Counted from the stretch's first letter, positions 4,115 to 52,289 are shown. The stretch: DNA of 64,000 bases from a candidate division FCPU426 bacterium (GCA_030637655.1 DAOWGI010000027.1:40329-104328); one strand, 5' to 3'. Made by a program: numbers and translations. Notes: a model not told the origin generated them from the letters alone.

Positions 4115-4127
4115 TTTATTCCCTTTC

Positions 4128-4341
4128 GTAACTACTCAGGTCTGCAAAAAGCGGGTCACTTTGGTCTTTTTTTAAGCGTGGCAGCGGTAACTGCAAAGAT
4201 GTGGTTTAGAAAAACCCATCCCCCTATTGCCCGTTATCAGCCTAGACCTTGGTTTTCCGCTTTGCCATGCTGGAAAAAAGACCAAAGTGACCTGCCCGAC
4301 GTGAATATTTGAATACTTTTTTTACACTCCTGAGTAGTTAC
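4128..4341. repeat. Copy 1 of a 214-bp hairpin-forming repeat (family R1) with terminal inverted repeats gtaactactcagg / cctgagtagttac
   Basis: About 88% identical to 5118-5331. Internal long-range inverted repeat ggtcactttggtcttttt (4156-4174) / aaaaaagaccaaagtgacc (4282-4300). The right terminus contains the pyrK stop codon TAA (4338-4340). Confidence 0.7.
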
Positions 4342-5093
4342 TCCCATTCAACCTCAAAGGCATTAAATACCGGCCCGTCTTTGCATACCCGCTGATAGGT
4401 TCCAGCTACGCGAACCACACACCCATTGCACACACCCATTCCACATGCCATAACTTCTTCCAATGAAACTTCCGTTGGAATCGCGTGCTTACGGGCAATC
4501 TGAGTTACAGCCCGTAACATCGGATTAGGTCCTGCGGCGGCAATTATTACCTTATGCTTCAGTTGACTAAGCCGCTCTTCCAATACTTGCGTGACCAATC
4601 CCCGGGCGCCAAAACTTCCATCTTCGGTCGCGCAAGCCAAGGTGGCTCCCGCCTGCCTTAGCTCTCGGCGTAACAGCAAGTCTTTTTTACAACGACCGCC
4701 CATCAGCACTTCCGCCGAACGACCTTGCGCTTTCACTTTATCCAAGAGAAACAGTAAGGGCGCTATGCCAAAACCACCGCCAACCAAAAGCCTGGGGGTT
4801 TTTCCGGATAGTGTAAATCCGTTGCCAAACGGACCGGTGATATCAATATCATCTCCCAGGCTTTGCTGAGCAAGAAGTTGCGTGCCCCTGCCCACGGTTT
4901 TGACGAGCAGCTCAATAGTTGTGGCCGTGGCGCGACAAATCGAAAAAGGACGGCGCCAAAACGGCGATTGCTCTCCTGCCACTTTTATCTCCACAAATTG
5001 CCCGGGTTTGGCTGCGCGAGCAATGCTCGGAGCGTTAAACACCAAATAATGGTACACACCTAAACGCTTATGTTTTATTAAAACAGCTTTCAT
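4338..5093 (-). CDS. pyrK: Dihydroorotate dehydrogenase electron-transfer subunit
   Basis: 251 aa. FAD/NAD-binding fold and C-terminal 2Fe-2S cysteine cluster (CGMGVCNGC). Confidence 0.8.
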   Translation of the reverse strand: MKAVLIKHKRLGVYHYLVFNAPSIARAAKPGQFVEIKVAGEQSPFWRRPFSICRATATTIELLVKTVGRGTQLLAQQSLGDDIDITGPFGNGFTLSGKTPRLLVGGGFGIAPLLFLLDKVKAQGRSAEVLMGGRCKKDLLLRRELRQAGATLACATEDGSFGARGLVTQVLEERLSQLKHKVIIAAAGPNPMLRAVTQIARKHAIPTEVSLEEVMACGMGVCNGCVVRVAGTYQRVCKDGPVFNAFEVEWE

Positions 5094-5117
5094 GTTACTT
5101 CCTTATACTTCTTTTTT

Positions 5118-5331
5118 GTAACTACTCAGGTCTGCAAGGAGCAGGGCGCTTTGGTTTTTTTTCAAGCGTGGCAGCGGTAACTGTGTAGATGTGGTTTAGA
5201 AAAGCATATCCCCCTATTGCCCGTTAGCAGCCTGGACCTTGGTTTTCCGCTTTGCAATGCTTGAAAAAAGACCAAAGTGACCTGCCAGGTGTGAATATTT
5301 GAATACTTTTTTTACCCACCTGGGTAGTTAC
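5118..5331. repeat. Copy 2 of repeat family R1, with TIRs gtaactactcagg / cctgggtagttac
   Basis: Same architecture and length as copy 1. The right terminus contains the pyrC stop codon TAA (5328-5330). Confidence 0.7.
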
Positions 5332-6635
5332 TCTTTTTTGGTTGGCGTTTTTTCTCGTTGATAGACTATTTTCCCGGCAACCAGGGTTGCTGCTACTTCT
5401 CCTTTTACCTTCCAACCTTCAAACGGTGTGTTGTACGACTGGCTCTGGAACTGTGCTGCTTGAATGGTGCGTTCCGCTTTGTCGGCAAAAACCACCACAT
5501 CCGCATCCGCATTAACTGATAACGTGCCTTTGGGGATTTTGAGAATCTTGGCTGGTTGATAACTCAAACAATTGATAGCATCCAATAGCGACACGCCTTG
5601 ACCTTCCACCAACGCTGTGAGCGTTAAGGACAACGAGGTCTCCAAACCACAGATGCCCGGCGCAGACAGCGCAAATTCCCTTTCTTTCTCACGACGTGAG
5701 TGCGGCGCGTGATCCGTGGCAATCGCATCAAGCGTCCCGTCTTTCAATCCAGCCAGCAAAGCCTGCTGATCCGATTGTTCGGAAATAGGCGGATTCACCC
5801 GGATATTGGTATCATAGTCGCTTAAACATTCATCCGTCAATACCAAGTAATGCGGAGCTGTCTCCGCCGTCACCGGCACACCACGTGCTTTAGCTTCCCG
5901 GATAATACGCACCGCGCCGGCAGTGGAAACGTGCGGTATGTGAATCCGGCTTCCGATCTCCTCGGCCAATAATACATCACGCGCGATCATCACTTCCATG
6001 GCAGAACGTGGAATTCCTGCCAAGCCTAAGACGGTTGCCATAAACCCGGCATGCGCAACCCCTTTACCGGACAGCGCTTTTTCCTCAGCATGATTAATAA
6101 TCAACAGGTCCAACATACCGGCATACTGCATGGCACTGCGCATCAAGACCGGCGAGCTTACCGGATCGCCGTCATCAGAAACCGCAATTACGCCGGCGGC
6201 TTTGAGTTCACCCATCTCTGTTAGTTTGTTTCCTTCACGGTTGCGGGTGATACATGCCACCGGAAAAACATTCACCACACCCTGACTTTTTGCTTTGGAA
6301 AGAATTAGTTCCACCATGGCCAGATTATCAATGGGCGGATCGGTATTGGGCATGCACGCCACACTGGTAATACCACCAGCCGCGGCTGCCCGGGTGCCGG
6401 AGGCAATAGTTTCTTTATATTCCGCTCCCGGCTCACGTAAATGCACATGCATGTCCACCAAACCGGGAGCAACCACTTTGCCTGTGGCCTCTATGGTCTG
6501 GTCTTGCTTCCCGGTTTTTATTGCGTTTAGTTTGGTAAGCGCGGTAATTTTTCCTTTTTCCATCCAGAGATCACCTACCGCATCGTGCCCGGAAGCCGGA
6601 TCCAGAATCCTACCGCCTTTAATCACTGTTCTCAT
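5328..6635 (-). CDS. pyrC: Dihydroorotase
   Basis: Metal-binding DMHVHLREPG motif. Start taken at MRTVIKGG (ATG 6635, GGAGGTG RBS) rather than at the upstream ORF-track start. Confidence 0.85.
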   Translation of the reverse strand: MRTVIKGGRILDPASGHDAVGDLWMEKGKITALTKLNAIKTGKQDQTIEATGKVVAPGLVDMHVHLREPGAEYKETIASGTRAAAAGGITSVACMPNTDPPIDNLAMVELILSKAKSQGVVNVFPVACITRNREGNKLTEMGELKAAGVIAVSDDGDPVSSPVLMRSAMQYAGMLDLLIINHAEEKALSGKGVAHAGFMATVLGLAGIPRSAMEVMIARDVLLAEEIGSRIHIPHVSTAGAVRIIREAKARGVPVTAETAPHYLVLTDECLSDYDTNIRVNPPISEQSDQQALLAGLKDGTLDAIATDHAPHSRREKEREFALSAPGICGLETSLSLTLTALVEGQGVSLLDAINCLSYQPAKILKIPKGTLSVNADADVVVFADKAERTIQAAQFQSQSYNTPFEGWKVKGEVAATLVAGKIVYQREKTPTKKE

Positions 6636-7557
6636 CGGACTCACCTCCAGATAACAAATATAGAACGGCCATTCGCACAGCCACACCATTGGTCACCTGA
6701 TCCAATATAACCGCATTCGGACCATCGGCTACACGGGGTGATATTTCAATGCCGCGATTCATGGGACCTGGATGCATAATCAGAACATCCGGTTTGGCCA
6801 GTTTTAAACGACGCGCGTTCACACCATACAAGTGCGCGTATTCTCTGGCACTGGGAAAGCAATGCCCGTCTTGCCGTTCCAGCTGAATACGCAGAATATT
6901 TATTACATCCGCGCCGGCAATCGCTTCTTCCAGGCGATAATAGACTTCCACTCCCAATTTGGCAAAACTTTTAGGAATCAAGGTGGCCGGACCGACGATC
7001 CGGACTTTAGCTCCAAGTTTGAGCAATCCTCTAATGTTGGAGCGTGCCACGCGTGAATGCGTGATATCCCCCACCAAGGTCACAATCAAATCCGTAAATG
7101 ATTTTTTATATTCACGAATGGTGTACAGGTCCAGCAAACCCTGCGTGGGATGCGCGTGCGTTCCATCCCCGGCGTTAATCACAGAGGCTTTGCTGTTTTT
7201 GGCAACCAGTCCAACCGCGCCCGAACAGGAATGCCGCATGATAATCGTATGCACATTCATGGCTTCTATATTACTTACGGTGTCCAGCAAACATTCACCC
7301 TTCACCAGCGATGACGCGGAAGCGGTAAAATTAACCACATCCGCCGAAAGCCGCTTGGCCGCTAATTCAAAAGAAGTCCGTGTGCGCGTTGATGGTTCAA
7401 AAAATAGATTCACTACTGTTTTCCCGCGTAAGGCCGGCACTTTCTTGATGGGACGCTGTCCCACTTCTTTAAAGGACTTGGCGGTATCCAATATTTCTAT
7501 AATTTCTTCCACGCTTAGCGCATGCAGGGTTAATAAGTCCTTGCTTTTCAGTCCCAA
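6619..7557 (-). CDS. pyrB: Aspartate carbamoyltransferase catalytic subunit
   Basis: STRTRTSFE carbamoyl-phosphate motif. The true start is probably TTG at 7557 (AAGGGGG RBS), giving MGLKSKDLLTLHALS and about 312 aa. The ORF-track start at 7653 would overlap pyrR by 80 nt. Confidence 0.8.
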   Translation of the reverse strand: MGLKSKDLLTLHALSVEEIIEILDTAKSFKEVGQRPIKKVPALRGKTVVNLFFEPSTRTRTSFELAAKRLSADVVNFTASASSLVKGECLLDTVSNIEAMNVHTIIMRHSCSGAVGLVAKNSKASVINAGDGTHAHPTQGLLDLYTIREYKKSFTDLIVTLVGDITHSRVARSNIRGLLKLGAKVRIVGPATLIPKSFAKLGVEVYYRLEEAIAGADVINILRIQLERQDGHCFPSAREYAHLYGVNARRLKLAKPDVLIMHPGPMNRGIEISPRVADGPNAVILDQVTNGVAVRMAVLYLLSGGESDENSD

Positions 7558-8260: not shown

Positions 8261-8342
8261 CGTTTCTGACAATACCCCGGCTTTGACTTTCTGTCAAGGA
8301 AGATTGCCGGAGAAAATTATCATGTGAGTGAAGCGGGAAAAA

Positions 8343-8494
8343 CCTAATCCGGATAAATCGGAACCAAAATTAGCCGCCGATAAACGCAGATAGACGCAGA
8401 TATTTATAGCTTAAGAGATAAAATAATTTTAATCTATATTTATCGGCGTTCATCGGCGGTTAATTTTCTTTTCATTAGTTCACTGACATATTAC
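8343..8494. repeat. Full copy of palindromic repeat family P (MITE-like)
   Basis: Left arm cctaatccggataaatcggaaccaaaattagccgccgataaacgcagata pairs with right arm tatcggcgttcatcggcggttaatttt. Ends with cattagttcactgacatattac. Related copies at 1-67 and 31365-31488. Confidence 0.6.
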
Positions 8495-8564
8495 GGAGAA
8501 AAGATAATATAATGGCGCAGAGGCGGTTGTCTTTGGTTTGTTATTTTATGGCCCTAAATAAAAA

Positions 8565-8596: not shown

Positions 8597-8626
8597 GAAC
8601 TTATAATTCACCTGCTGGTGCATAAA

Positions 8627-8737
8627 TTATTTCTTTTTCTTTGCGACTTTCTTCTTCACGACTTTCTTCTTCACCACTTTTTTCGCCGCGACTTTCTTCT
8701 TCACCACTTTCTTCGCCGCTTTCTTTTTCACTGGCAT
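8627..8737 (-). CDS. 36-aa lysine-rich small protein (MPVKKKAAKKVVKKKVAAKKVVKKKVVKKKVAKKKK), not in the ORF track
   Basis: ATG at 8737 is preceded by a perfect AGGAGGTGA Shine-Dalgarno with 6-nt spacing. Terminator immediately downstream. Composed of KKV(V/A) repeats. Confidence 0.5.
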   Translation of the reverse strand: MPVKKKAAKKVVKKKVAAKKVVKKKVVKKKVAKKKK

Positions 8738-12056: not shown

Positions 12057-12224
12057 TTACTTATCCTCCTCAGGAATAATAACAAATATGTAAATTATAA
12101 ACCCATTGACAAAAGATGCAATCTTTTTTCCATTTCGTTTGTAATATATCAGTGAAGTGCTGTGTTTTGTCAAATAACCCGGAAACATACGGTCTGCTAA
12201 TTTATTTTTTAGGTTAAGTAGCGG

Positions 12225-19857: not shown

Positions 19858-19890
19858 TTTTTGCAACATGTCAGTGAACTAATGGAAAGA
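19858..19890. repeat. Solo terminal fragment of the MITE family (caacatgtcagtgaactaatggaaagaa)
   Basis: Reverse complement of the family-P right end (cattagttcactgacatgttac). Downstream sequence diverges. Confidence 0.4.
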
Positions 19891-23378: not shown

Positions 23379-25157
23379 TTACCAAGTGGCTTTTCTTCGA
23401 CCCTCTGGTTGTTGCTGTCGCTTCTGCATGCGTTTTCGGTGCGCGTCTTTTTCCGCCTCGCGCACCGCGTCGAGTATTGTTTCCGCTTCTTCCGGCCGCA
23501 TCTCTCCCGGCCGGGGTTTTTTTGGCTCTTTCTCCTCCGGTGTGTTCTGCTCTTGTCCGGAATCCGCTTTTTGCTCGCCTTTATCATCCGCTTGGTCCGG
23601 CTCTGATTCGTCTTTGGACTTGCGCGGATCCTGATCCTTTAGATCCTGCTCTTTTTTCCGCCCACCAGCTGATTGCTGCTGCTGATTTTTCTGATCCTGC
23701 TTATCATCTTTGTTCTGTTGCTCTTGTTGCGACGACGGATTTTTCAGCATTTGAATCGTCTGAGCTAAATTATAAATCGTATCCTCATCCTGGGGAGCTA
23801 ATTTTAAAGCTTCCCGGTAATGTTTGGCTGCTTCCTGATATTTTTGGGAGGCAAAATACGTATTTCCCAGGTTGTACAAAATTTCAGCGCGCATTTTTTC
23901 ATGCTTACTCTTTAATGCCCGTTGATACGATTTTTCCGCCTCGTCAAAGCGTTCTTGCTGATGCAGGCTGTTTCCAATATTATAGTTCACCTTGGGCTCA
24001 TCCGGACTTTTAATTTGCGCCTCCCGGTAGGCTTCCAGCGCTTCTTCGTATTTGCCTTGTTTATATTTGCGATTTCCTTTATTAACCTCCTCGGCCGTGC
24101 CGGCCCAAGCTAATTGCGGTAATAATAGCATAACCAGAAATATAGTTAACCAGGAACCTTTCCGTTTTGGTAACCAAAAAGCAAAAAGCAATAATAATAA
24201 CGCGGGCAAAAGTACATATTGATAGCGATTCTCGTTTGCTCCGTATTGTCCGCCGGTCACCTCCCGTTTTCGCATTTGCGCTATAAGATCCACAATTTGT
24301 TTGGCTTCTAAGCTGCCGTGATGCGCCGGTAAGTATACACCCCCTGTCATATCCGTGATTTTTTTTAAAGTTGCTTCATCCAATCGGGACATCACAGTTT
24401 TTCCATTTTTATCTTTAACATAATCGACGATCTCACCTTTGGCATTACGAATCGGTATGGGCTCCCCGCCGGGAGATCCGAAACCAATACTGAGTATTTT
24501 CACTCCCGCGGCTTTAGCTTCTTGGGCAGCTTCTATGACTTTCGAATCATGATCCTCTCCATCGGTTAGCAAAACCAAAACACGGTAGCCTTCTGATCCC
24601 TCAGGAAAAATTTCCAAGCCGGCCCTAATGGCGGTCCCCAATTCGGTCCCAGCCACAGACACGGATTGGGGAGATAAATAGTTTAAAAACATCTTGGCCG
24701 CAACATAATCCGTAGTCAGAGGACAGGCCACCTGAGCGGAGCCGGCAAAAGCAATGATTCCGACCCGATCCCCGCCCAAATGATCAATAAACGCTCCCAG
24801 TTCTTGCTGCGCGCGTTCCAGGCGATTGGGACGAACATCTTCAGCCAACATGGATTGTGAGACATCCAAGATAATAATGACATCCACACCTTGCCGTAGC
24901 ACTTCCACCATTTTCACCCCATATTGTGGTCCTGCCAATGATAACCCGAGCAGAAATAACCCCGCCAAGAGTGCCAGCCCTTTTAGAACCCGGCGAGTAT
25001 TGGACAGGTCTTGTATCAATTGGTCCACCAAAGACTGATTTCCAAAAACCCGCAGATCGCGTTGGCGTTGCCAGCGCGCCCACAGGGCAATGATTACCAG
25101 AGCGGGCAGCAGAATTCCCAACACCAGGTAAAAAATAACCGGGTAAACAAATTGCAT
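23379..25157 (-). CDS. BatB-like protein (VWA domain plus TPR repeats, with a K/E/Q-rich acidic tail)
   Basis: VWA MIDAS motif (DVSQSM). TPR repeats. Start taken at MQFVYPV (ATG 25157, GAGAGGA RBS), downstream of MITE copy A. Confidence 0.7.
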   Translation of the reverse strand: MQFVYPVIFYLVLGILLPALVIIALWARWQRQRDLRVFGNQSLVDQLIQDLSNTRRVLKGLALLAGLFLLGLSLAGPQYGVKMVEVLRQGVDVIIILDVSQSMLAEDVRPNRLERAQQELGAFIDHLGGDRVGIIAFAGSAQVACPLTTDYVAAKMFLNYLSPQSVSVAGTELGTAIRAGLEIFPEGSEGYRVLVLLTDGEDHDSKVIEAAQEAKAAGVKILSIGFGSPGGEPIPIRNAKGEIVDYVKDKNGKTVMSRLDEATLKKITDMTGGVYLPAHHGSLEAKQIVDLIAQMRKREVTGGQYGANENRYQYVLLPALLLLLFAFWLPKRKGSWLTIFLVMLLLPQLAWAGTAEEVNKGNRKYKQGKYEEALEAYREAQIKSPDEPKVNYNIGNSLHQQERFDEAEKSYQRALKSKHEKMRAEILYNLGNTYFASQKYQEAAKHYREALKLAPQDEDTIYNLAQTIQMLKNPSSQQEQQNKDDKQDQKNQQQQSAGGRKKEQDLKDQDPRKSKDESEPDQADDKGEQKADSGQEQNTPEEKEPKKPRPGEMRPEEAETILDAVREAEKDAHRKRMQKRQQQPEGRRKATW

Positions 25158-25213
25158 ACTTAAATCATCCTCTCTGAGAATAGAACAAAAGAGCAATAGA
25201 AAAAGCTCAATTG

Positions 25214-25439
25214 CGGTAACATGTCAGTCATGCGTTTTTTTGTTTATCATCCATGAATGCAACCCCACCCTGTCATCCCCGAATGCTCTTATCGGGGATA
25301 TGGTTTAAAAAACCAGATTCCTGCCGAATGCGTCCCTATATATCTTTTCCGGTCGGGGCCGATTAAACCCTCGGGAATGACAACCTTTGTTAACCGCAAT
25401 TCGCTGACATGTTACTACTAAATGCTCAAGCTCCTAGGG
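25214..25439. mobile_element. MITE-like repeat, family 3 copy A, with TIRs ggtaacatgtcag / ctgacatgttac plus a flank ctaaatgctcaagctcctagg
   Basis: The internal 160 bp (gtcatccccgaatgc..tatcggggata..ccgattaaaccctcgggaatgac) is near-identical to 27557-27710 and, in reverse orientation, to 29780-29895. The batA stop codon lies in the right flank. Confidence 0.65.
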
Positions 25440-26423
25440 AATACGTCGAAAAACGGTTTGCTGTAACAAGGCGCCCAGCACCAATAATAAAAATCCCGCA
25501 GCCAACCAGCCGAAATACAGATCCCGATAGCTGGTGAATTCCACAATCTTGTATTCGCTTTTTTCCATGCGATTGATTTTTTCGAATATTTTTGCCAAGC
25601 CTTTGGGGTCTTTGGCGCGAAAATACCTGCCATTGGCCGCATTGGCCACCCGTCTCAGGGTCTCTTCATCCAGGTCATTTTTCATGGGTACCATACGTGT
25701 TCCGTACACTGGATGCTGCATAGGCATCAAACCACCTTCCAACGACCCTGCGCCTACAGCATATATCTTAATCCCCAGTGCGGCCGCAGCCTTGGCGGCT
25801 GTCACCGGATCAATCTGACCCATATTGTTTCGTCCATCGGTCAGAAGCAGGATAACCCGGCTGGCAGCTTTGGATTCACGCAAGCGATCCGCGGCTGTCG
25901 CAATGGCCATACCAATCGCCGTGCCATCCACTTCAGTCATATCAATTGCAACATGCTTCATATATTCCAGCAAGGCTCTTTTATCCGAGGTCAAAGGGCT
26001 CACAGTCATGGAGGTCCCTCCAAAAACAACTAAACCTATTCTGTCTCGTACACGACTTTCGATAAATTTGAGCGCCACTTCTTTGGCCGCGCCTAAACGA
26101 TTCTGGGGTTTAAAATCCACGGACCGCATGGAACCTGAAGTATCCAGACACAGAATAATATCCACACCTTTGCCTGAAATTTGTTCGGTCTTAAGCCCAA
26201 ACTGGGGACGAGCCATAGCCGTTACCGTTAAACATAAACCAATAACCGTAAGCAGCCCTATGATCTCATCCGGACCCAGCCTGGTTTGGGAAACGCTCTT
26301 TTCAATACCAGTCAATTCAGGGAAGCGAATCCCGTTCGGTTTGCGTGCCCGCAACCACCACAATACTGCTAATCCGGCAATTGGAAGCAGAAGTAAAAAC
26401 CACCAGGGATTCGCGAACTTCAT
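25434..26423 (-). CDS. BatA-like VWA-domain membrane protein
   Basis: N-terminal TM segment then VWA with MIDAS motif (DTSGSM). Start taken at MKFANPWW (ATG 26423, GAGGAGAAA RBS). Confidence 0.7.
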   Translation of the reverse strand: MKFANPWWFLLLLPIAGLAVLWWLRARKPNGIRFPELTGIEKSVSQTRLGPDEIIGLLTVIGLCLTVTAMARPQFGLKTEQISGKGVDIILCLDTSGSMRSVDFKPQNRLGAAKEVALKFIESRVRDRIGLVVFGGTSMTVSPLTSDKRALLEYMKHVAIDMTEVDGTAIGMAIATAADRLRESKAASRVILLLTDGRNNMGQIDPVTAAKAAAALGIKIYAVGAGSLEGGLMPMQHPVYGTRMVPMKNDLDEETLRRVANAANGRYFRAKDPKGLAKIFEKINRMEKSEYKIVEFTSYRDLYFGWLAAGFLLLVLGALLQQTVFRRIP

Positions 26424-27448
26424 GGCTTCTGTTTCTCCTCTTGCTCCTGTTGTTGTGTTTCCTGCATTATCCGCGTAGTATGCTCCACGGCTTCGTAGAT
26501 TTGTATCCAATCCGCTTGCGCTTCTTTTTCCATTGGCTGAAATTTAGCAAACTTGACCATATCACTTTGTTCCAATACATTACGAATCGCATTCACATCC
26601 TGGCGGGGGATGGCTGTTCCTTTGATTTCCCGCAGCAACTCATGTGTCGTGCGATCAATGGCCGGAATACGGAACTGGTTTTCAATGTAATGTCGTGCTA
26701 TCCCTGACAGTTCACTATAATACTTCTTCCATTGCCCCTTTAAAATAAGCGTTGAGTTTCGCAAAGCCAGCAAGCGTTCTTTGGCAATTTCATCGGCCGG
26801 CCGGGTCGGCGCTGCCGACGCTTCGGTCTGTTGCCTTAGCTTACGATATCGGTCAAACCAAAACAGCGCCGCGGCAAGCACACCTGCTGCCAACAACACA
26901 CTGCCCAGCAACCACCAGGACGTCATTCCTCGCGGATCCTTAAGACCGCGTATTTTTCCCGGTTCATCATTCTCTCGTGGCAACAGGTGCTTTACTTTAA
27001 TTATTATCGGCGCAGAATGAAATTCCGAAGCTTTTCCATCCGGGCCGGAAAACTTTTGGATCAAAGCGGGTATCTGCACTTCTCCTGACACAAAGGTTTG
27101 CAGAGTTAAAATATCTTTACGCACAAATTGCCCGTTCACATAGTCGGGTTTGCCAAGTTGGGCATACACCACTTCCCAATCATTTAGTGTTTCCGGATAC
27201 TCCATTTTTTCCAGCGTGATCGAGGGTTGCGCTTCAACCAAAACCTCCACGAGCACACGATCCCCTATTTTGGGATTTTCGGTCATGGGTGTAAGTGTAA
27301 TACGCATTGGACCCTGAATGTCCGGACAACGCCTGGCAGTCACTGTGGCGCTGATTGCGTCAGCTGCTCCGCGCTCTATTTTCACGGCTGAACCAGAACC
27401 CGGCAGCCCTAACACTATGGCAATAAATAACAGCACTATTTTTTTCAT
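26420..27448 (-). CDS. Bat-operon membrane protein (signal peptide, periplasmic domain, single TM, cytoplasmic tail)
   Basis: Occupies the position of the DUF4381-type hypothetical protein in Bat operons. Start taken at MKKIVLLF (27448). The ORF-track N-terminal extension is encoded by MITE copy B and is probably not translated. Confidence 0.45.
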   Translation of the reverse strand: MKKIVLLFIAIVLGLPGSGSAVKIERGAADAISATVTARRCPDIQGPMRITLTPMTENPKIGDRVLVEVLVEAQPSITLEKMEYPETLNDWEVVYAQLGKPDYVNGQFVRKDILTLQTFVSGEVQIPALIQKFSGPDGKASEFHSAPIIIKVKHLLPRENDEPGKIRGLKDPRGMTSWWLLGSVLLAAGVLAAALFWFDRYRKLRQQTEASAAPTRPADEIAKERLLALRNSTLILKGQWKKYYSELSGIARHYIENQFRIPAIDRTTHELLREIKGTAIPRQDVNAIRNVLEQSDMVKFAKFQPMEKEAQADWIQIYEAVEHTTRIMQETQQQEQEEKQKP

Positions 27449-27505
27449 GTTCTTATCTTCATTTCGTTCCTGGTTTCTTCGCTTCAATCTCCGGGCTGAG
27501 TACTT

Positions 27506-27745
27506 CCTAGGAGTTTGAGCATTTAGTCTGTTTTTTGGTAACAGGTCAGTCATGCGTTTTTTTGTTTGTCATCCCCGAATGCAGCCCCCACCCTGTCATC
27601 CCCGAATGCTTGTATCGGGGATACGGTTTTAAAAAACCAGATTCCTGCCGAATGCGTCCCTATATATCTTTTCCGGTCGGGGCCGATTAAACCGTTCGGG
27701 AATGACAACCTAAAAAAACCGCCTAAATGCTCAAACTCCTAATGG
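27506..27745. mobile_element. MITE-like repeat, family 3 copy B, with outer TIRs cctaggagtttgagcatttag / ctaaatgctcaaactcctaatgg
   Basis: Internal core identical to copy A. Lacks the inner right ctgacatgttac segment (about 20-bp deletion relative to A). The DUF58 gene stop codon lies in the right terminus. Confidence 0.65.
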
Positions 27746-28617
27746 AACCGTTTGGCACGCATGCGAAAGAACTTAACTAATGGTCCAATATATGACCGAT
27801 CGGTCTGCAATTCAATTCCATCCATATTTATTTTTCGGAACAGATCACGTCGCGCTTCCCGCTGATCCCGGTTATATTGAGCATAGGCTTTTCGAACTGC
27901 CGCCGAACCGGTCGGCACCAAACGACTGGTTCCCCGTTCCGAATCCTCCATAACCACATACGGAATGTTTGGCAAGGTCTCTTCCCGCGGATCACGTATT
28001 TCTATGGCAATCACATCATGCCTGCGGTTGGTCACAGCCAACGCGCGTTCATAGCCGTGGACATGGAAATCGGAAATTAAGAAAACAATGCAGCGCCGCT
28101 TTAAAACCTCATTTAAATACTCCAGAACGGGATTGAAATCCGTGCCGTGACCTTCGGGTTGCGCGTATAGCACATCCCGCAAAATTCTGGATAGATGCGA
28201 GCCGCCCTTGGCCGGCGGAATAAATTTTTCAATTTGATCAGTAAACAACAATGCGCCTACGCGATCATTGTTTTTAATGGCCGTATAACTGAGCACTGCC
28301 GCGATCTCTGCTGTCATTTCCGCTTTGGTTTGCGATTGCGTACCAAATCTTTGTGAGGCCGAAGCATCCACCAACAGCATAATATTAAGTTCGCGTTCCT
28401 CAGTAAATTTCTTGATGTGCGGATGTCCGGTGCGCGCGGTAACATTCCAATCAATGGCACGAATATCATCTCCGGGAAAATACTCCCGAACCTCATCAAA
28501 TTCCATGCCTCGTCCTTTGAACACACTCTCATATTGACCGGCAAATATTTCGTTTACAATACGGCCGGTTCTAATTTCCAGACGCCTGATTTTGGCAATG
28601 ATTTCTTTGGGTAACAT
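27739..28617 (-). CDS. DUF58 (VWA-like) protein, MoxR partner
   Basis: 292 aa. Conserved DUF58 block (DIRAIDWNVTART..KKF..E). Directly downstream of moxR. Confidence 0.75.
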   Translation of the reverse strand: MLPKEIIAKIRRLEIRTGRIVNEIFAGQYESVFKGRGMEFDEVREYFPGDDIRAIDWNVTARTGHPHIKKFTEERELNIMLLVDASASQRFGTQSQTKAEMTAEIAAVLSYTAIKNNDRVGALLFTDQIEKFIPPAKGGSHLSRILRDVLYAQPEGHGTDFNPVLEYLNEVLKRRCIVFLISDFHVHGYERALAVTNRRHDVIAIEIRDPREETLPNIPYVVMEDSERGTSRLVPTGSAAVRKAYAQYNRDQREARRDLFRKINMDGIELQTDRSYIGPLVKFFRMRAKRFH

Positions 28618-28677
28618 ATCGTTATTACATTCCTTCGCAGATTGTCGTGTAGGGGCGAGGTTACCTCGCCCCTACGA

Positions 28678-29667
28678 TCATGGGACTTCCACCCCGTCAA
28701 ACACGGATTTTACAATATCCTCTGAGGTCAATTGCTCGGCCTCGGCTTCATAAGTCACAATGATCCGGTGTCTCAGCACATCCGGTCCAATGGTTTTGAC
28801 ATCTTCCGGAGTAATAAATCCACGACCGGATAAAAAGGCGTACGCCTTGGCTGCCATGGTAAGACTAATAGTTGCTCGAGGAGAAGCGCCATAGGCTATA
28901 AGTTCGCGCATATCTTTCAAGCCTGCTTGTTCCGGTTCGCGCGTGGCAAATACCAAGTCCACGATGTAGTTTTGCATTTTTTCATCAACATAAATTTGAG
29001 CGACTATTTCACGTGCTTTGAGTATTTCTTTGGTGGATATCTTGTTTTTCACTTTTGGCATCTCACCCACGGTCATACGCTTGAGTATCTCTTTTTCCTC
29101 TTCCCGGGTGGGATAACCAATTTTCAATTTCAAAAGAAAGCGATCCACCTGGGCTTCAGGCAAAGGATAGGTCCCTTGTTGTTCAATCGGATTTTGGGTG
29201 GCCATCACCAAAAACGGTTTATCCAAAGGAAAGGTTGTATCACCAATGGTGACTTGGCGTTCTTGCATGGCCTCTAACAAAGCGCTCTGCACTTTGGCCG
29301 GTGCCCGGTTGATTTCATCGGCTAGAATCAGATTGGAAAAAATCGGACCGCGCTTAACACTAAAACCAGCACCTTTGGGATTGTAAATCATAGTTCCAAT
29401 TAAATCCGCGGGTAATAAATCCGGGGTAAATTGCAAGCGCTGAAAATCAGCGTCAATGACTTCTGACAGGGTTTTAATGATCAGTGTCTTGGCCAAACCA
29501 GGAACACCTTCCAACAAAACATGTCCATCAGCCAGCAGTCCAATCAACAGGCCGTCGACCAGAGTGTGCTGCCCTACAATAACACGGCCTATTTCCTGGC
29601 GTAATTCTTCCACAAAAACGCTTTCTTTTTTGACTTTTTCGTTCAAGGCACGAATATCTTTATTCAT
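28678..29667 (-). CDS. moxR: MoxR-family AAA+ ATPase
   Basis: Walker A GVPGLAKT, Walker B LLADEINR, overall MoxR similarity. First gene of the Bat operon. Confidence 0.85.
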   Translation of the reverse strand: MNKDIRALNEKVKKESVFVEELRQEIGRVIVGQHTLVDGLLIGLLADGHVLLEGVPGLAKTLIIKTLSEVIDADFQRLQFTPDLLPADLIGTMIYNPKGAGFSVKRGPIFSNLILADEINRAPAKVQSALLEAMQERQVTIGDTTFPLDKPFLVMATQNPIEQQGTYPLPEAQVDRFLLKLKIGYPTREEEKEILKRMTVGEMPKVKNKISTKEILKAREIVAQIYVDEKMQNYIVDLVFATREPEQAGLKDMRELIAYGASPRATISLTMAAKAYAFLSGRGFITPEDVKTIGPDVLRHRIIVTYEAEAEQLTSEDIVKSVFDGVEVP

Positions 29668-29755
29668 ACTTACTTCCCTCCCAACAATGCGATTTTTCTG
29701 TACAATAACTTATTCAAAAACATAACGCTTGTCAAGTCCTGAAGCTAAAAATAAG

Positions 29756-29920
29756 TAATATGTCAGTGAAGTGCGTAGTTAAACAAAGATTGTCATTCCC
29801 GAGGGTTTAATCGGGAATCTGGTTTTTTAAACCGTATCCCCGATACAAGCATTCGGGGATGACAGGGTGGGGGCTGCCTTCACGGATGACAAACAAAAAA
29901 ACGCTTCACTGACATGTTAC
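29756..29920. mobile_element. MITE-like repeat, family 3 copy C (inverted orientation), with TIRs gtaatatgtcagtgaag / cttcactgacatgttac
   Basis: The core is the reverse complement of the copy A/B core. The right terminus TTAC supplies the TAA stop codon (29917-29919) of the downstream NlpC/P60 gene. Confidence 0.65.
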
Positions 29921-31254
29921 AAAAATAAAATAGCCGTAATTCGCGTGCGCAAAGATCCCTTTTGACTGCCTTCTCCCAGGGAAAGGTCTGATACCAGAAC
30001 ACGCGCTACCCGTTGAATGTAATCACCTTCTGAATCACGCGCGTGAATGCCATACAGATTGTGAATCACATAGGTTCTGCCCTGGACATTTCCCAATACC
30101 AGCATAATATGCCCAGGTAGGTAGAGCAGACACCTTCCTCCTGTCAACCGGCTGAGCTGTTCCGCCTTTTGCCGGCTATTGCCGGAAAGTTGTTCTTTCG
30201 GCAATACAGCCTGCATACCCATTGTGCTCCGTGGCAACTCAAGACCGCAGGTAAGTCCGATACGCCGAATGAATTCCGAGCAATCACCGTAGCCTCCTCC
30301 TCCTCCCCAGCTATAGGCTTCACCTAACAAAATGAAGGCCTGCTCAAGTATGACACGCGCTGTGCCCGGACGTGGTCCAAAATGAAGCGCAGCTCTCTCC
30401 TTGACTGTGACCGGTATGAAATACAGCTTTCCTTGCTGATCCCGGCGGGGAAAAGCCAGTTGGTTGCCCTTTTTTTTATAGAATGCCAATTGGCAGCCCA
30501 TTCTGGCTCGATCTTCCGTTTCTTTTTTTTTCCATTGTATGAACGAGATTTCCTTACCGACAACAATGGTCTGGGATTGCCGCACCTGCTCTCGCAAAGC
30601 GCTTTTACTGACCATGACCCCTGCATCCTGTGCTTTGATCCAGCCGCGAGCAATCGTAGTAGCTACAAAAAACCATTTTTTATCCGTACTGCTGTGCAGT
30701 ATTGCCAACGGCTCGGATAAACGCAGGCCGGAAATCAACAGCATATTAAATTCCGTATCCAAGGGCTTGGTGGTAATTATTTCTTCGGTTGGAAACATAC
30801 GCAACTGCGTCCGGCGAACTGTCATTCCCCACACAACCGGATTAGACCCCTGCAGGCTTGCCAGGTTCACATTTTTTTTTATCGCTTGGTACGCCTGCTG
30901 TTGCATTGCCTGCCCTTGTTCATTAAAGCGCCCTACTCGCTGCAAATAAGAAAAATCGCTTTTTAGCCACTCGCGCAGTGTGTTGCAAGACAATTGGTCC
31001 GGCAGCACAAAAATATCAATAAAATATCGTGTATGTTTCCATTGCGCCGGCTGTTTTTGCGCCGGCTTTTTGGCAAACAACAGTTGATCCGGTTTTTCCA
31101 ACCGCTCAATCCAATACTGCGCGGTTTCCATGTTTTTTTCAACATAGGGCAGGTTGTCAGGTCCTGCCTGAATGCGGAGTTCTGTTTGTACTCCCTTTGG
31201 CAATACGACCAGAAAAAAACTAAAAAAAACGATTACCAGCTTGTTTTTGTTCAC
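29917..31254 (-). CDS. Secreted NlpC/P60 (C40) family peptidase with a large N-terminal domain
   Basis: Signal peptide. C-terminal catalytic motifs GDCSEF (Cys) and GHIMLVLG (His). Paralog of 31486-32949. Confidence 0.6.
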   Translation of the reverse strand: MNKNKLVIVFFSFFLVVLPKGVQTELRIQAGPDNLPYVEKNMETAQYWIERLEKPDQLLFAKKPAQKQPAQWKHTRYFIDIFVLPDQLSCNTLREWLKSDFSYLQRVGRFNEQGQAMQQQAYQAIKKNVNLASLQGSNPVVWGMTVRRTQLRMFPTEEIITTKPLDTEFNMLLISGLRLSEPLAILHSSTDKKWFFVATTIARGWIKAQDAGVMVSKSALREQVRQSQTIVVGKEISFIQWKKKETEDRARMGCQLAFYKKKGNQLAFPRRDQQGKLYFIPVTVKERAALHFGPRPGTARVILEQAFILLGEAYSWGGGGGYGDCSEFIRRIGLTCGLELPRSTMGMQAVLPKEQLSGNSRQKAEQLSRLTGGRCLLYLPGHIMLVLGNVQGRTYVIHNLYGIHARDSEGDYIQRVARVLVSDLSLGEGSQKGSLRTRITAILFL

Positions 31255-31364
31255 TTTTTACACCATGTCCGTTTTGAAGCTTTTGAGGAGATATTCCTGT
31301 TTTCTACATTTATAAATATAGCCTCTTAGGCACTTACAAATGAAATTCTTTCAAAAATGGAAAG

Positions 31365-31488
31365 AAAATTAACCGCCGATGAACGCAAATAAACGCAGAT
31401 ATTTATAGCCTAATGGATAAAAAAGATTTTAATTTGCGTGTATCCGCGTGTATCGGCGGCTAATTTTGGTTCCGGTTTATCCGGGTTA
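31365..31488. repeat. Copy of palindromic repeat family P (variant lacking the ctgacatgttac terminus)
   Basis: aaaattaaccgccgatgaacgcaaataaacgcagatatttatag .. gcgtgtatcggcggctaattttggttccggtttatccgggttagg. Arms match 8343-8400 and 1-40. Confidence 0.6.
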
Positions 31489-32949
31489 GGGACGCAAAAA
31501 ATTAATGGTTTTTAATCGTTCCAACAAAGATCCTTTGGTGCTTCCCTCTCCCAGGGATAAATCCGAAACCACAACTTCTCCAATAATTATTTTACGATCT
31601 TTTTTTGGTTTGTCCAACACCCGATACGCCCAAATATCATGTATCGCGTAGTATATATCTCCTTCGCTCCCAAGATAAAGCATGATATGTCCGGGAAATT
31701 GCAGCAGCACCGGATGCTTGATCTTGTTCAGTTTTGCTTGTCTTTGCCGCGTATTGTTCTTCCTGGCAAACGTATACCGGCCGCTTCCTACCCTGGCTTG
31801 GGACGACGAATTGCGAGGCAAAATAAATCCCATGGTGGCATACACATCCATTATCACTTGTGAGCAATCCCGGTACTCATTCATCCCGCCCCAAGCGTAT
31901 GGTGTGTGTAGGAGTTTGAACGCCTGTTGACATATATTACGTGGCGTATATGCCAAGTACCCTTGGTGCACATCCGCTGCTCGGGAAATATATATTTTCC
32001 GACGAATAATATCACCGTTCTTCTTTTTTTTCGGAAATCCGACAACATAATATGCTTTCGTTCTGCCCAGCAAGGGACACACGGTTCCCATATAGAGTTT
32101 CTCCGCCACTATGGTGGTGCCGGGCGCTTCAACTGCTTCCACCTTATGTCCGGTAATCACAAGAAAACGCTTAGGCTTGATATACCGCTCCAATTTTTTT
32201 GGATTGCAGTCTTCTAAAATATCACTCCGTTTTATCCAGCCACGACAATACGCGGTGACCACAAATACCCAGGCTTGATCACGACTGCTGTGCATAATGG
32301 CCAGGGGTTGCAGAGCCCTGACTGAGGAGACTTGTACAATGTCAAAATTTACATTCCAACGCTTTCCGGTGACTAAAAGCTCAGTCGGATAATATCGCAC
32401 ATTGGTTCTTCGCAGGGTGAGTCCATATCGAACCGGATTGTTTTCCTGAATGGCGTTCAGATTCAGGTTGTCATCCAAAGCGGCAAATGTTTTCTGACAA
32501 ATCGGCTCTCCTCCACTATCCCACCGCTGTTTGCGTTTGATCCGTTCGGTCTCGTCTTTGAGATAAGTATATAGTGTATACCCTTCCAATATACCCGGGC
32601 TATAGGCTGAAGGACGTTCCAAATTCCATTCCCACTCCGGATTGTCCTCTCCGGGTCGATCGACCTCCACATAGCGATAATCCCATAATTTATCCGTAAA
32701 CACATTGGTCAACAAACCCCGCGTGATATTTTTGCGATTGATTTTCCTGATTTGCTTTTTTGTGAGCAATAAGTGATCGCGAAAAATATATTTGTTTATC
32801 CAATATTCGGGCTGATCCATTTCCAAAGTACAATTAAACAACGGCAGTGTTGCCCGCTCTTGATAAGGCGGGCCTGCTGGAATCTGCAGCGAAGCGCAAC
32901 CAGACAGATTGACGAGCAAAAAGCAGAGGATAATATATTTTCGCAACAC
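31486..32949 (-). CDS. Secreted or lipoprotein NlpC/P60 (C40) family peptidase, paralog
   Basis: Signal peptide with cysteine (LSGCAS). Catalytic motifs RDCSQV and GHIMLYLG. Shares the C-terminal tail VSDLSLGEGS.KGSL with the upstream paralog. Confidence 0.6.
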   Translation of the reverse strand: MLRKYIILCFLLVNLSGCASLQIPAGPPYQERATLPLFNCTLEMDQPEYWINKYIFRDHLLLTKKQIRKINRKNITRGLLTNVFTDKLWDYRYVEVDRPGEDNPEWEWNLERPSAYSPGILEGYTLYTYLKDETERIKRKQRWDSGGEPICQKTFAALDDNLNLNAIQENNPVRYGLTLRRTNVRYYPTELLVTGKRWNVNFDIVQVSSVRALQPLAIMHSSRDQAWVFVVTAYCRGWIKRSDILEDCNPKKLERYIKPKRFLVITGHKVEAVEAPGTTIVAEKLYMGTVCPLLGRTKAYYVVGFPKKKKNGDIIRRKIYISRAADVHQGYLAYTPRNICQQAFKLLHTPYAWGGMNEYRDCSQVIMDVYATMGFILPRNSSSQARVGSGRYTFARKNNTRQRQAKLNKIKHPVLLQFPGHIMLYLGSEGDIYYAIHDIWAYRVLDKPKKDRKIIIGEVVVSDLSLGEGSTKGSLLERLKTINFLRP

Positions 32950-40222: not shown

Positions 40223-40344
40223 AAATCCCCTTTAAAAATAACAAAGCAGGCCGCGAAAACTTCTTCACAGCCTGCACTTAATGCTTAAGGTGAAATGATA
40301 CGCACTAACCTAAACCCTGTCAAATGGAAAAACGAGAATTTTGG

Positions 40345-40575
40345 AACATGTCAGTGATGGTACTGGGAGCCTTGTCGAATTTTACTCTTTCTCCCCCTTT
40401 TGTAAAGGGGGCAGGGGGGATTTAATCAATAAAACGCCCACTTTTATAATAAAATCCCCCTCAATCCCCCTTTTTAAAAAGGGGGAAGAGTGTTTAAAAT
40501 CCGCTTTTGTGCCTAAATCCAACAGGCTCCTAGCAAACCTGAAAAACCTTTCTAGTACCATCACTGATATGTTAC
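40345..40575. mobile_element. 231-bp MITE with 22-bp TIRs aacatgtcagtgatggtactgg / agtaccatcactgatatgttac and internal G/C-tract palindromes
   Basis: Near-perfect TIRs sharing the catgtcagtga core with families P and 3. Internal cccccttttgtaaagggggcaggggggatt and aatccccctttttaaaaagggggaag hairpins. ORF-track ORFs 40341-40595 lie wholly inside it and are judged spurious. Confidence 0.7.
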
Positions 40576-49253: not shown

Positions 49254-50798
49254 TCAATGCTTCTTGCTTTGCTTCTTTATGTACTCAGCGCCTTTTTTAG
49301 TAAGACGATATTTTTGCAAACGGCTGTTGGGCTTTTCGGGGATGGTTCGCTCTATCAGACTATTTTCCAAAGCAATGCTGAGGTATTGCTTCTCAAAATT
49401 ATCACGCCCCTTTAAATGCATCGCCTCCATTATCTCTTTGCGGCTCATTTCCTGATTTTTCAAGCATCTCAACAACTTTCCGACTTGCCCTGTGACTTGC
49501 CCTGTGACTTGCCCTGTGACTTGCCCTGTGACTTGCCCTGTGACTTGCGGGGCTATCCCACCAACAGCCTCAAAAGCGCGCCCGGATTTCCGGCGAATCG
49601 TTATCACAAATCCGTCTGTTAGCCGGAACTCCGGTTCCTTGAGTCCTGCTTCGCGGCAGCGTTCAACCATATCGCTGATGCCGGTTCCCATGCGCTCAAT
49701 ATACTTTGTCAGATATAAAGGCTCGGCAATCAACGGATTGACAGGCACTGATCCATGCGGCTGGCGCAGCTTTTCCAATGTGAGCGGGGGCGGAAGAGTA
49801 CCGGGATTCCACACTTCCAGCCGGTCGGAAAAAAGCATGACCTGCACACTGCCATTGCTGGTATAGTCGCGATGCGCCACGGCATTGACGATCGCTTCGG
49901 AAACCACTTCCGGGGGGATTTCATACGCCACCGGCGCCTGCGGTCCGCGAGCGCGCGTACCCACGGCTAAATCAATTTTTGAAAGAACAAAATTGACCGA
50001 CTGATTCACCAGATCAAACAATGTTCCCTTAAAGATTTGATAGAAAGGAATGGGTTTTGAAACGCTTGTGCCGTGAAAATGGGCGCATTTCACTTCAGAC
50101 GAAATTAGAAAACGCTGCGGATTTTTCCCGAATAGAAGCATGGCCGCGTTGGTCGGGAGATCGTTTTTAAGCAAATTCAAATGCGCCAGCACATCCCGCA
50201 TCTTGGTGTCGTCCGTCAAGGGTAATCCGCGCGAGTGACGGGCAAGTTGAAGAAACCAGCTGATTTTCTCTTCAGATAGGTCTTCCAGTTTCGCATCACG
50301 GCACAGCGCGGCGTCAAACGGCACGTCGCGAAGCAACTCATGCGCTGCCAAATAATCCACCAGCGCCGCGTAAACTCCTGCCATGAGCTCTGAAAATGTT
50401 GAAAATCTCCGGCGGATAAGCTGTGCGCCGGCGTGTTGCACGAGTGCGCGCATTTTCGGATGGCGTTGGCTGTCATCCAGACCTTTGACAAATATCAAAC
50501 GATATTTTCCGCGCCTGGTTGCTTCATCAAACTCCTGATGCGTGGCCGAAAAACCATTCGCATCTTCAGTCCCGTATTGATTCCCGAAAATGCCAATATA
50601 AACCTCACATTGCCCGATTTCGTTCATGTACAATGCCACCGCTGATTGATCCGCAGCAGCTTTGTCTTCAAACACAAACGGCTCAAAAAACCTCCGCAAC
50701 ATTGGATCAGCGCGCAAATACTCGCGCAGGGCTGCGCGCTCCGCTTCAAACTCTTTTTGAACACTGCTAATGAATATTTTAAATTTCATCCGCGTCAT
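49254..50798 (-). CDS. Fusion protein of N-terminal DUF4062 (TIR-like) with a COG2865-type module (Schlafen-like AlbA_2 DNA-binding domain, HATPase_c_4, C-terminal wHTH); candidate defense protein
   Basis: N-terminus KIFISSVQKEFEAER matches the DUF4062 / TIR-like FISS..E pattern. Central and C-terminal region resembles COG2865 regulators (..AHRDYTSNGSVQVMLFSDRLEVWNPG..). (QVTGQ)x5 linker, then wHTH. The likely true start is M4 (ATG 50789) behind AAGAGGG. Confidence 0.6.
   Translation of the reverse strand: MTRMKFKIFISSVQKEFEAERAALREYLRADPMLRRFFEPFVFEDKAAADQSAVALYMNEIGQCEVYIGIFGNQYGTEDANGFSATHQEFDEATRRGKYRLIFVKGLDDSQRHPKMRALVQHAGAQLIRRRFSTFSELMAGVYAALVDYLAAHELLRDVPFDAALCRDAKLEDLSEEKISWFLQLARHSRGLPLTDDTKMRDVLAHLNLLKNDLPTNAAMLLFGKNPQRFLISSEVKCAHFHGTSVSKPIPFYQIFKGTLFDLVNQSVNFVLSKIDLAVGTRARGPQAPVAYEIPPEVVSEAIVNAVAHRDYTSNGSVQVMLFSDRLEVWNPGTLPPPLTLEKLRQPHGSVPVNPLIAEPLYLTKYIERMGTGISDMVERCREAGLKEPEFRLTDGFVITIRRKSGRAFEAVGGIAPQVTGQVTGQVTGQVTGQVTGQVGKLLRCLKNQEMSRKEIMEAMHLKGRDNFEKQYLSIALENSLIERTIPEKPNSRLQKYRLTKKGAEYIKKQSKKH
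49484..49560. repeat. In-frame 15-bp tandem repeat (tgacttgccctg..), about 5.5 copies, encoding a (QVTGQ)n linker
   Basis: Directly visible perfect tandem array cctgtgacttgccctgtgacttgccctgtgacttg.. inside the DUF4062-COG2865 gene. Confidence 0.8.
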
Positions 50799-51653: not shown

Positions 51654-51801
51654 TGATTCCTCCTTTTTGTCTAAAATTAAACACAGGGGCCTGGCATGCC
51701 CGGGGGACTTTATAGTGAGAATAATAGCAAATCAAAAAATAGAATGTTAGTAATTTATGTGATTTTTACATAAATAGCTGCCCGGCACAGAATAAAATTG
51801 C

Positions 51802-52155: not shown

Positions 52156-52289
52156 CCAGCTTTTATAAATATTCTATTGGATTTTTCATTCCGTATCATT
52201 AGACTGGGCTCAGAATGGCAAATTTCGCGAGCATTATTTTATGCGGAAACTGGAAAAAGTCCGCCCGGTTTCCAATAAACTAAGCTTTT

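Follow-up and report, generated by a model that had tools for sequence, protein, structure and literature searches.

Three repeats in the Bat/MoxR operon of a candidate division FCPU426 bacterium as probable nested non-autonomous elements around a gene-less, Ssn-related hairpin doublet

Three repeat copies in a Bat/MoxR operon

A family of short repeats is described here from a stretch of 64,000 nucleotides from a candidate division FCPU426 bacterium (GCA_030637655.1 DAOWGI010000027.1:40329-104328), which is referred to throughout as the window and in which positions are counted from the first letter. Repeat finding and a three-way alignment of the window identified three related copies, A, B and C, in an operon encoding Bat and MoxR proteins, in a region where all of the operon genes lie on the minus strand (Table 1). 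The copies are found at close to the coordinates given in the original prediction, which also placed them correctly in the gap between batA and batB, in that between the DUF58 and membrane protein genes, and upstream of moxR. The elements are 166-235 nt in size, and A and B, which form direct repeats 2.3 kb apart, are 92% identical across ~182 nt. With a probability put at roughly 0.6, the three repeats are read as nested non-autonomous mobile elements built around a gene-less hairpin doublet related to the sites of Ssn, a GIY-YIG nuclease.

Table 1. Positions in the window of the three repeat copies, their cores and junctions, and the genes of the operon region (MITE, miniature inverted-repeat transposable element).
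Feature	Position	Strand	Remarks
Copy A, inner GTAAC-ended MITE	25216-25415	+	200 nt, both ends kept, without target duplication
Copy A, remnant of outer inverted repeat CTAAATGCTCAAGCTC, then CTAG	25418-25437	+	Single remaining outer end
Copy B, complete outer element	27507-27741	+	CTAG, GAGTTTGAGCATTTAG ... CTAAATGCTCAAACTC, reverse complement of TTAG; encloses inner MITE
Copy B, only remaining inner end GTAACAGGTCAGTCA	27538-27552	+	Other GTAAC end lost
Copy C, complete 166-nt MITE, inverted	29755-29920	-	Ends GTAACATGTCAGTGAAGCG / GTAATATGTCAGTGAAGTGCG
Target-site duplication of C, AAAAATAA	29921-29928 and 29747-29754	.	Both 8-mers identical
Core of A, 110 nt	25272-25381	+	C-type doublet plus 38-nt insertion
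Core of B, 112 nt	27595-27706	+	C-type doublet plus 38-nt insertion
Core of C, 72 nt	29792-29863	-	Two convergent hairpins with short A/T spacer
Native TAG stop of batA	25434-25436	-	Within CTAG adjoining outer arm of A
Native TAG stop of DUF58	27739-27741	-	TTAG target at edge of outer element
TAA stop of SH3_6 gene	29917-29919	-	From GTAAC end of copy C
Native moxR promoter (TTGACA, 17 nt, TAAGTT)	29707-29735	-	-35 lies 19 nt from end of C
batB	23379-25196	-	
batA	25434-26510	-	
Membrane protein gene	26420-27448	-	
DUF58	27739-28617	-	
moxR	28678-29667	-	
SH3_6 protein gene	29917-31254	-	

The three copies are insertions, and are real small mobile elements, in agreement with the non-autonomous family that had been proposed. 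Indeed, alignment of the copies defined inverted ends of 15-19 nt together with a perfect 8-bp target-site duplication at C, and when the flanks of C were joined in silico across one copy of the 8-mer, an open reading frame (ORF) tail reading ...ILFLASGLDKRYVFE before the stop codon was restored, homologous to the tails ...GHELDKAWAFE, ...PGLDK and ...PGLDKERNFE, each followed by a stop, of relatives. By its MoxR protein the source corresponds to the uncultured bacterium GCA_023139775.1, and three close relatives labelled candidate division FCPU426 (L098, L099 and L101) have the same operon, with MoxR proteins that are 88-92% identical. The element is missing at the C site from the sequence of all three; by gene coordinates, 24-96 nt separate their genes where A is found and 20-57 nt where B is found. 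Additionally, in three independent assemblies of this population the contigs break off within the A, B and C cores, an effect expected of multi-copy repeats. Since excision of C restores the ancestral tail, the terminus of C does, as predicted, supply a new TAA, and the SH3_6 gene has lost 11 codons; the present protein ends ...ILFL and is 445 amino acids in length, compared with 451-460 in the relatives. When folded as single-stranded DNA (ssDNA), copy C is predicted to form one long branched hairpin (-31.1 kcal/mol, z = -5.7), as is copy B (-49 kcal/mol, z = -7.3). A blastn search of copy C against cultured plasmids and phages returned no match.

Shells, target sites and promoter spacing

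The inner shell of the elements is delimited by ends of 15-19 nt that read GTAACATGTCAGTGA(AG). Twelve occurrences of the motif GTAACATGTCAGTGA were counted in the window, where 0.85 would be expected. Shared inverted termini had been claimed for all three copies, and this is the case for A and C, in which both termini carry GTAACATGTCAG, but not for B, which keeps a single end, mutated to CAGGTCAG. Similarly, the copies are mosaics, as had been proposed, except that the supposed third variant of the end at C does not exist, the ends of C being of the same GTAAC type as those of A. The motif bounds other elements with quite different interiors (8317-8494, 40343-40575 and one cut by the window start) and is also present as solo ends at 12141 and 19863. 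Across ~84 kb there are three copies of the family and at least eight elements with GTAAC-type ends. The GTAAC shell is a MITE with 8-bp target duplications, perfect examples of which are borne by three elements, namely C, the element at 8317-8494 (GGAGAAAA) and the element cut by the window start, the other half of which was fetched (L120:2516-2716; CGGACCGC). A mosaic repeat family (..ATCTGCGTNTATC..GGCGGCTAATTTTGG..) is distributed at 2-66, 8343-8495, 31354-31495 and 55575-55604, with the GTAAC end either present or absent, and probably corresponds to the other families of the original prediction.

In all six of the independent insertions that could be evaluated (8317-8494, 12141-12155, 19863-19877, 29755-29920, 40343-40575 and L120:2516-2716) a -35-like hexamer follows the GTAAC end at a distance of exactly 19 nt. 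The order on the gene strand is the GTAAC terminus, 19 nt, the -35-like hexamer (TTGACA in four, TTGCAT and TTGAGT in the others), 16-17 nt, a -10-like hexamer (TATTGT, TATATT, TAAGTT, TATCAT, TATAAT and TACAAT) and the start codon, the 19 nt comprising the 8-bp duplication and a further 11 nt. As the empty sites of relatives reveal, both C and the 19863 element stand before a native promoter and 11 nt of native upstream sequence, and the moxR promoter is conserved in relatives without copy C; these data indicate that the shell integrates at a fixed distance, at about -55. The notion that the -35 box is carried by the element was discarded, given that the promoters are already present at the empty sites.

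How such a distance is measured may be suggested by the CTGACA within the GTAAC end, the TGACA of which starts 31 nt, or ~3 helical turns, before the TGACA of the promoter TTGACA. A transposase that binds CTGACA in its own end would feasibly also read TTGACA in the target, and targeting could be guided either by sequence or by RNA polymerase, with insertions inside genes presumably purged. Copy C, upstream of moxR, is an insertion at this spacing, made within the final 11 codons of the upstream gene. A literature search found no precedent for promoter-targeted insertion, and we know of no report of IS66 elements with a strict 19-nt spacing from -35 boxes. A strict 19-nt spacing from promoters that were there before the insertion would represent an unusually precise promoter-directed choice of target for a bacterial transposon.

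In copies A and B the GTAAC MITE is in turn enclosed by a second element, with ends of the form GAGYTTGAGCATTTAG. Copy B is bounded by this second inverted repeat, GAGTTTGAGCATTTAG, the arms of which adjoin ..CAT TAG and CTAG, whereas A keeps one outer arm, situated directly after CCC TAG. The outer element is positioned at CTAG or TTAG, tetranucleotides into which it would have inserted; the target duplication at B, the one complete copy, is identical at three of four positions (TTAG/CTAG). CTAG is 8-fold depleted in the window (30 observed versus 242 expected, ratio 0.12), and two of the three CTAGs between 24 and 31 kb are junctions of the outer element. Of other tetranucleotides, TCGA is low (0.34) and CCGG enriched (3.27) in the window as a whole. 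IS5-family elements use a YTAR target (CTAG, TTAG or CTAA) and thus resemble the outer element of A and B in having CTAG/TTAG flanks, although the GAGTTTGAGCATTTAG ends are unlike IS5 ends.

The stop codons of batA and DUF58 occupy the same codon position in relatives, and both read CTAG in L101, which indicates that they are native and that the outer element inserted at the overlapping CTAG or TTAG. It is the location of the outer element at rare CTAG/TTAG sites overlapping TAG stops that places both copies exactly at stop codons. Hence the prediction of stops at the repeat termini was right as to all three locations, but those of batA and DUF58 are ancestral as opposed to element-made, and the suggested reshaping of gene 3' ends applies to C, where the last 11 codons were replaced, and not to batA or DUF58, where the stops stand as in the relatives.

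At the other side of copy B, an ATG at 27551-27553 (minus strand), within the inner end of the element, creates the 35-codon extension of the neighbouring ORF that was noted originally. The extended ORF (26420-27553) does exist, and was used by the gene caller in one assembly (377 amino acids in L095). However, here as in relatives the membrane protein starts, with a signal peptide, at the conserved ATG at 27448, and the N-terminal extension is probably an ORF-calling artefact.

The lack of a target duplication and of one outer arm at A, together with the loss of one inner end from B, points to a composite ancestor that was later rearranged. Blocks AATTGCGG and GTAACATGTCAG are present at both ends of copy A (25207-25233 and 25393-25415), in swapped order, possibly as a vestige of the rearrangement by which A lost its target duplication.

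The hairpin doublet and its relation to Ssn sites

At the centre of each copy lies a doublet of hairpins, GTCATCCCCGA..TCGGGGATAYGG followed by CCAGATTCCCGA..TCGGGAATGAC. The shared core is shorter than the ~160 bp first estimated, with GTCAT to ATGAC spanning 72 nt in C and 110-112 nt in the other two copies. In C, the left hairpin is GTCATCCCCGA-ATGCTTGTA-TCGGGGATACGG and the right hairpin CCAGATTCCCGA-TTAAACCC-TCGGGAATGAC. The difference in length is due to a 38-nt insertion that is common to A (25322-25359) and B (27646-27683) and missing from C, and which is itself a degenerate left-type hairpin, placed after the ATTCC of the right hairpin. Loci L034 and L047 have comparable insertions of one hairpin into another at this point of the core. 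With the extra hairpin taken into account, copy B is four layers deep: a hairpin within a doublet, within a GTAAC MITE, within a CTAG-targeted MITE.

Motif searches within the window matched the core at A, B and C alone, with 0-0.15 matches expected by chance. Elsewhere, a scan of a genome collection with the left hairpin located the core in at least 93 loci. The metagenome-assembled genomes (MAGs) that hold these loci are labelled as Schekmanbacteria, Nitrospirota, Syntrophales, other Deltaproteobacteria, Thermodesulfobacteriota, Calditrichota, Thiotrichaceae and others. Complete doublets are also present on two IMG/VR viral contigs (L102:1291-1380 and L103:856-940), making phages a possible vehicle of spread across phyla. 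Among the core loci listed, a module of 65-125 nt is conserved (GTCATCCCCGA-loop-TCGGGGATAYGGTTT...AAACCAGATTCCCG-loop-CGGGAATGAC), around which the outer inverted repeats are of eight kinds or more, with target duplications of 4 bp (GAGGCTCTTGCAAAA type), 8 bp (GTAACTATTCAGCAC type) and 9 bp (CAATACGGTTCACTTAAG type). At L030, one of the shell types carries a different, GTCAT-type hairpin pair instead. Judged by comparison of these sequences, the core is conserved and the ends divergent, the opposite of a normal MITE family, in which the ends are conserved and the interior drifts. A second Ssn-like doublet was observed in the window at 51794-52163 (hairpins at 51946-51975 and 52018-52047), with the stem CGTCACCCCGG..CCGGGG and the tail TCCAGG, nested in another outer inverted repeat, of 43 nt; a similar pair is found in the same genome at L123:21720-21810.

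In Neisseria, the NTS hairpin CGTCATTCCCGCGMAVGCGGGAATCYRG is bound and cut, as ssDNA only, by SsnA, a small GIY-YIG protein; related hairpins, the Ssn-related motifs (SRM), flank ssn homologues across phyla, and the C directly after the palindrome is reported to be critical for SsnA binding (PMC11893778). The right hairpin of the window has the sequence GTCATTCCCGA-GGGTTTAA-TCGGGAATCTGG on its own strand. It agrees with the NTS at every common non-loop position, and has both the 5' GTCWY flank and the 3' R-N-C-Y-N-B tail of the SRM/NTS form (GTCAT...ATCYRG in the NTS). The left hairpin, GTCATCCCCGA...TCGGGGATAYGG, is a variant with the stem ATCCCCGA and the tail ATAYGG.

Six different ssn-like loci, encoding five distinct single-domain GIY-YIG proteins of ~95 amino acids, were examined in MAGs labelled Deltaproteobacteria, Omnitrophota, Latescibacterota and Kiritimatiellia and in metagenome contigs. 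The fetched proteins match Pfam PF01541, an assignment at the level of GIY-YIG as opposed to cd10448, and searches of PDB and NCBIfam produced UPF0213 structures, a sub-threshold group I intron endonuclease model and nothing else. The layout of these loci is (T/C)GTCATTCCC[stem-loop-stem]GGGRATC, 0-14 nt, ATG...stop, 0-150 nt (usually 0-4) and TGGATYCCCG..CGGGRATGACA. The hairpin downstream of the stop is present at all six, and that upstream of the ATG at five, L128 having a degenerate version only. Some of the downstream hairpins have the ATTCCCGA/TCGGGAAT stem and long loops, as does the right hairpin of the window, and at L104 (JACREV010000153.1) a doublet stands right after ssn, the second hairpin of which differs from that of the window at two loop positions. 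The match of both arrangement and flanking sequence to the hairpins around ssn-like genes makes a gene-less doublet of Ssn-related type the best reading of the core. In several lineages (L105, L110-L118 and L126) the hairpin-ssn-hairpin cassette is flanked by genes for a large serine recombinase and an HTH_17 excisionase-like protein, and hence lies inside an integrative element.

The hairpins of the window share with NTS and SRM the 5' GTCAT, the C/G-rich stem (ATTCCCG/CGGGAAT) and the 3' ATCYRG tail, and the core is, like them, intergenic, multi-copy and spread across phyla, with the convergent arrangement known from units of a hairpin, ssn and an inverted hairpin. They differ in that there is no gene between the core hairpins, in the ATCCCCGA stem and ATAYGG tail of the left hairpin, in loops of 8-9 nt as opposed to 3-5 nt, and in the embedding of the doublet in transposase-type MITE shells; the words MITE, REPIN and doublet do not appear in the paper on Ssn (PMC11893778). 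In the proposed arrangement, the innermost layer would consist of the two ends of an ssn unit without its gene, standing to that unit much as a REPIN stands to RAYT. By analogy with what is published on SsnA and the NTS, the hairpins would form in ssDNA and then be bound, and nicked just upstream, by Ssn supplied in trans. The doublet sits at the centre of the cut-and-paste GTAAC MITE, the second layer.

Weighing the alternatives, and wider occurrence

Several results count against the interpretation of the repeats as nested elements around an Ssn-related doublet. The window and 20 kb of flanking sequence yielded neither an ssn gene nor a transposase, and likewise no autonomous parent with the same ends. 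The published SRM search expression, HGTCWYN(0-2)YYVSBRHN(0-5)WNVSBRGN(0-2)RNCYNB (PMC11893778), does not match at A, B or C, where the loops are of 8-9 nt and one stem position differs, whereas it matches hairpins beside the ssn-like genes in L104-L114. Moreover, the left hairpin has an A in place of the critical C directly after the palindrome, and a metagenome scan for the exact left hairpin directly before a GIY-YIG start gave one chance match, at L119, which is another core. RNAalifold analysis of 37 distinct cores showed a switch from A-U to C-G at one pair of 19 and no variation at the rest. The search pattern had preset the left hairpin, which is therefore uninformative as to covariation, and with covariation nearly absent the hairpins are backed by sequence conservation and folding energy rather than by compensatory change. 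The taxonomy of the MAGs is possibly imperfect, and the history of A, with no target duplication and one outer end, is inferred. Finally, the hallmarks of IS66 ends are a GTAA(GCG) start and an 8-bp target duplication (PMC11946415, PMC12888890), and the inner shell resembles IS66-derived MITEs in its GTAA start and 8-bp duplications, but is like IS66 ends (GTAAGCG...) in the first 4-5 nt alone; as no transposase was found, the link to IS66 stays a mere resemblance.

A rather unlikely explanation, but the one that best survives among the alternatives, is that of an ordinary MITE in which the core is a passive passenger spread by recent horizontal transfer and by recombination among MITEs, the resemblance to Ssn sites being without function and no Ssn acting. 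Whole elements of the GAGGCTCTTGCAAAA type, ends and core together, are near-identical in MAGs of several phyla, suggesting recent transfer, and the failure of the published expression on the window hairpins would fit this explanation. So too would the scarcity of ssn genes, since a motif search and tblastn of the window and the 93 listed core loci for GIY-YIG genes yielded only a distant truncated pseudogene in L083. However, the core is the most conserved part of the elements, and the ends, on which a transposase depends, are entirely different among the 4-, 8- and 9-bp shells, which is the reverse of what a passive passenger would lead one to expect. The core also agrees with the two ends of ssn units in its arrangement and its non-loop bases. 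With regard to the L083 locus itself, the GIY-YIG gene (6780-7059) is truncated, the contig ending inside it, and ahead of it are GTGAGCCTGTCATG, repeated seven times in tandem, and the outer repeat GGTTCTTTCTCATTTCAAGTGGGTAA, which also flanks core-bearing elements in L001 and L035.

It is very unlikely that the repeats constitute a cis-acting RNA or transcription element of the operon, be it a terminator, an attenuator, a processing or stabilising hairpin or a small RNA. The strong folding (z = -5.7 and -7.3), the short T run after each hairpin, one of which was flagged as terminator-like, and the location between genes of one operon would all suit such a role. Yet the elements are missing from relatives with the same operon, and, with respect to transcription, the orientation of A and B is the reverse of that of C. 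Cores elsewhere have no consistent orientation between co-directional genes (26:19) and lie between divergent pairs in 13 cases and between convergent pairs in four; 62 of the 65 cores with called ORFs on both sides are between ORFs. Rfam gave no match at the elements even at E = 10, the searches of the whole window at gathering thresholds and of 25100-30000 at E <= 10 returning a tRNA elsewhere and one chance hit. Terminator-like sites are no commoner in the region than in shuffles, and the terminator idea was ruled out by orientation, position and the shuffle comparison. With opposite orientations in one operon, absence from relatives and one covarying pair of 19, the copies lack the features of a structured cis-RNA. 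Since the operon works without the elements in relatives, a regulatory role is unlikely, and the elements would be DNA-level parasites rather than operon regulators.

A REP/REPIN family mobilised by RAYT, an IS200/IS605-type Y1 transposase, and not by Ssn, has even slighter prospects. The geometry of the core is REPIN-like, two inverted palindromes forming one larger hairpin, and the core is intergenic and multi-copy, a gene-less inverted doublet of nuclease-flanking hairpins dispersed in intergenic DNA as in REPIN/RAYT systems. Conversely, the 5' motif is GTCAT and not a GTAG-type tetranucleotide, and the hairpins match both the NTS/SRM flanks (GTCAT ... ATCYRG) and the ends of GIY-YIG units. 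No RAYT turned up in any locus, albeit without a systematic search, and the class of flanked gene that was found is GIY-YIG, not Y1, so that the protein partner would be GIY-YIG for the core hairpins, as against HUH/Y1 for REPINs. To our knowledge, REPINs are species-specific, unlike the core, which is shared across phyla, and are never carried inside MITEs with terminal inverted repeats and target-site duplications. Duplication or gene conversion confined to the operon, without mobility, would account for the 92% identity of the direct repeats A and B, but is refuted by the target duplication and exactly restorable empty site of C, the empty sites in relatives, the core loci elsewhere, the recurrence of the end motif at least 12 times in the window and the breaks of independent assemblies inside the repeats.

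Copies A-C have some affinity with the Neisseria intergenic mosaic elements (NIME), the Correia elements and the BIMEs of E. coli, which are likewise mosaics of an intergenic hairpin (dRS3/NTS or REP) and other repeat modules, sometimes located beside promoters or gene ends. They differ from these in sequence, in phylum (FCPU426-like), in having clear target duplications and in their ordered nesting of a hairpin in a doublet in a MITE in a MITE.

A broader proposal can be put forward tentatively, with the balance of probability against it: that Ssn-type doublets are a mobile or selectively retained module which, as a parasite of parasites, colonises the centres of unrelated palindromic MITEs in different bacterial phyla and depends on a GIY-YIG ssDNA nuclease in trans, and, separately, that the GTAAC shell of this genome targets sigma-70-type promoters at about -55 via the -35 hexamer or bound RNA polymerase. 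The role of Ssn outside Neisseria and the mobility of hairpin-ssn-hairpin units are still open questions (PMC11893778). Gene-less doublets in MITEs with at least three duplication lengths, in many phyla and on viral contigs, provide genomic material with which to test whether and how Ssn sites spread, and whether other transposons are assisted or exploited by them. The effects on annotation include broken assemblies, false N-terminal extensions (the 377-residue call) and truncated genes (the SH3_6 tail).

Other repeats were encountered in the operon and the window. Different, unrelated inverted-repeat elements are present between moxR and DUF58 in two of the relatives (L099:10990-11346 and L101:3366-3543), suggesting that the operon gaps are insertion hot spots across the clade. 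In the window itself, the moxR-DUF58 gap is filled by a perfect REP-like palindrome (28649-28675; GTAGGGGCGAGGTTACCTCGCCCCTAC), where L098 has 4 nt, and the motif GTAGGGGCGA recurs inside the element at ~19900. A 225-nt direct repeat, with copies 88% identical and 990 nt apart (4119-4343 and 5109-5333), has a 33-nt inverted repeat in each copy. Lastly, tandem repeats of 12 nt (GACTTGCCCTGT, ~6 units) and 15 nt, at 49470-49560 and 8619-8723, are probably within coding sequence.

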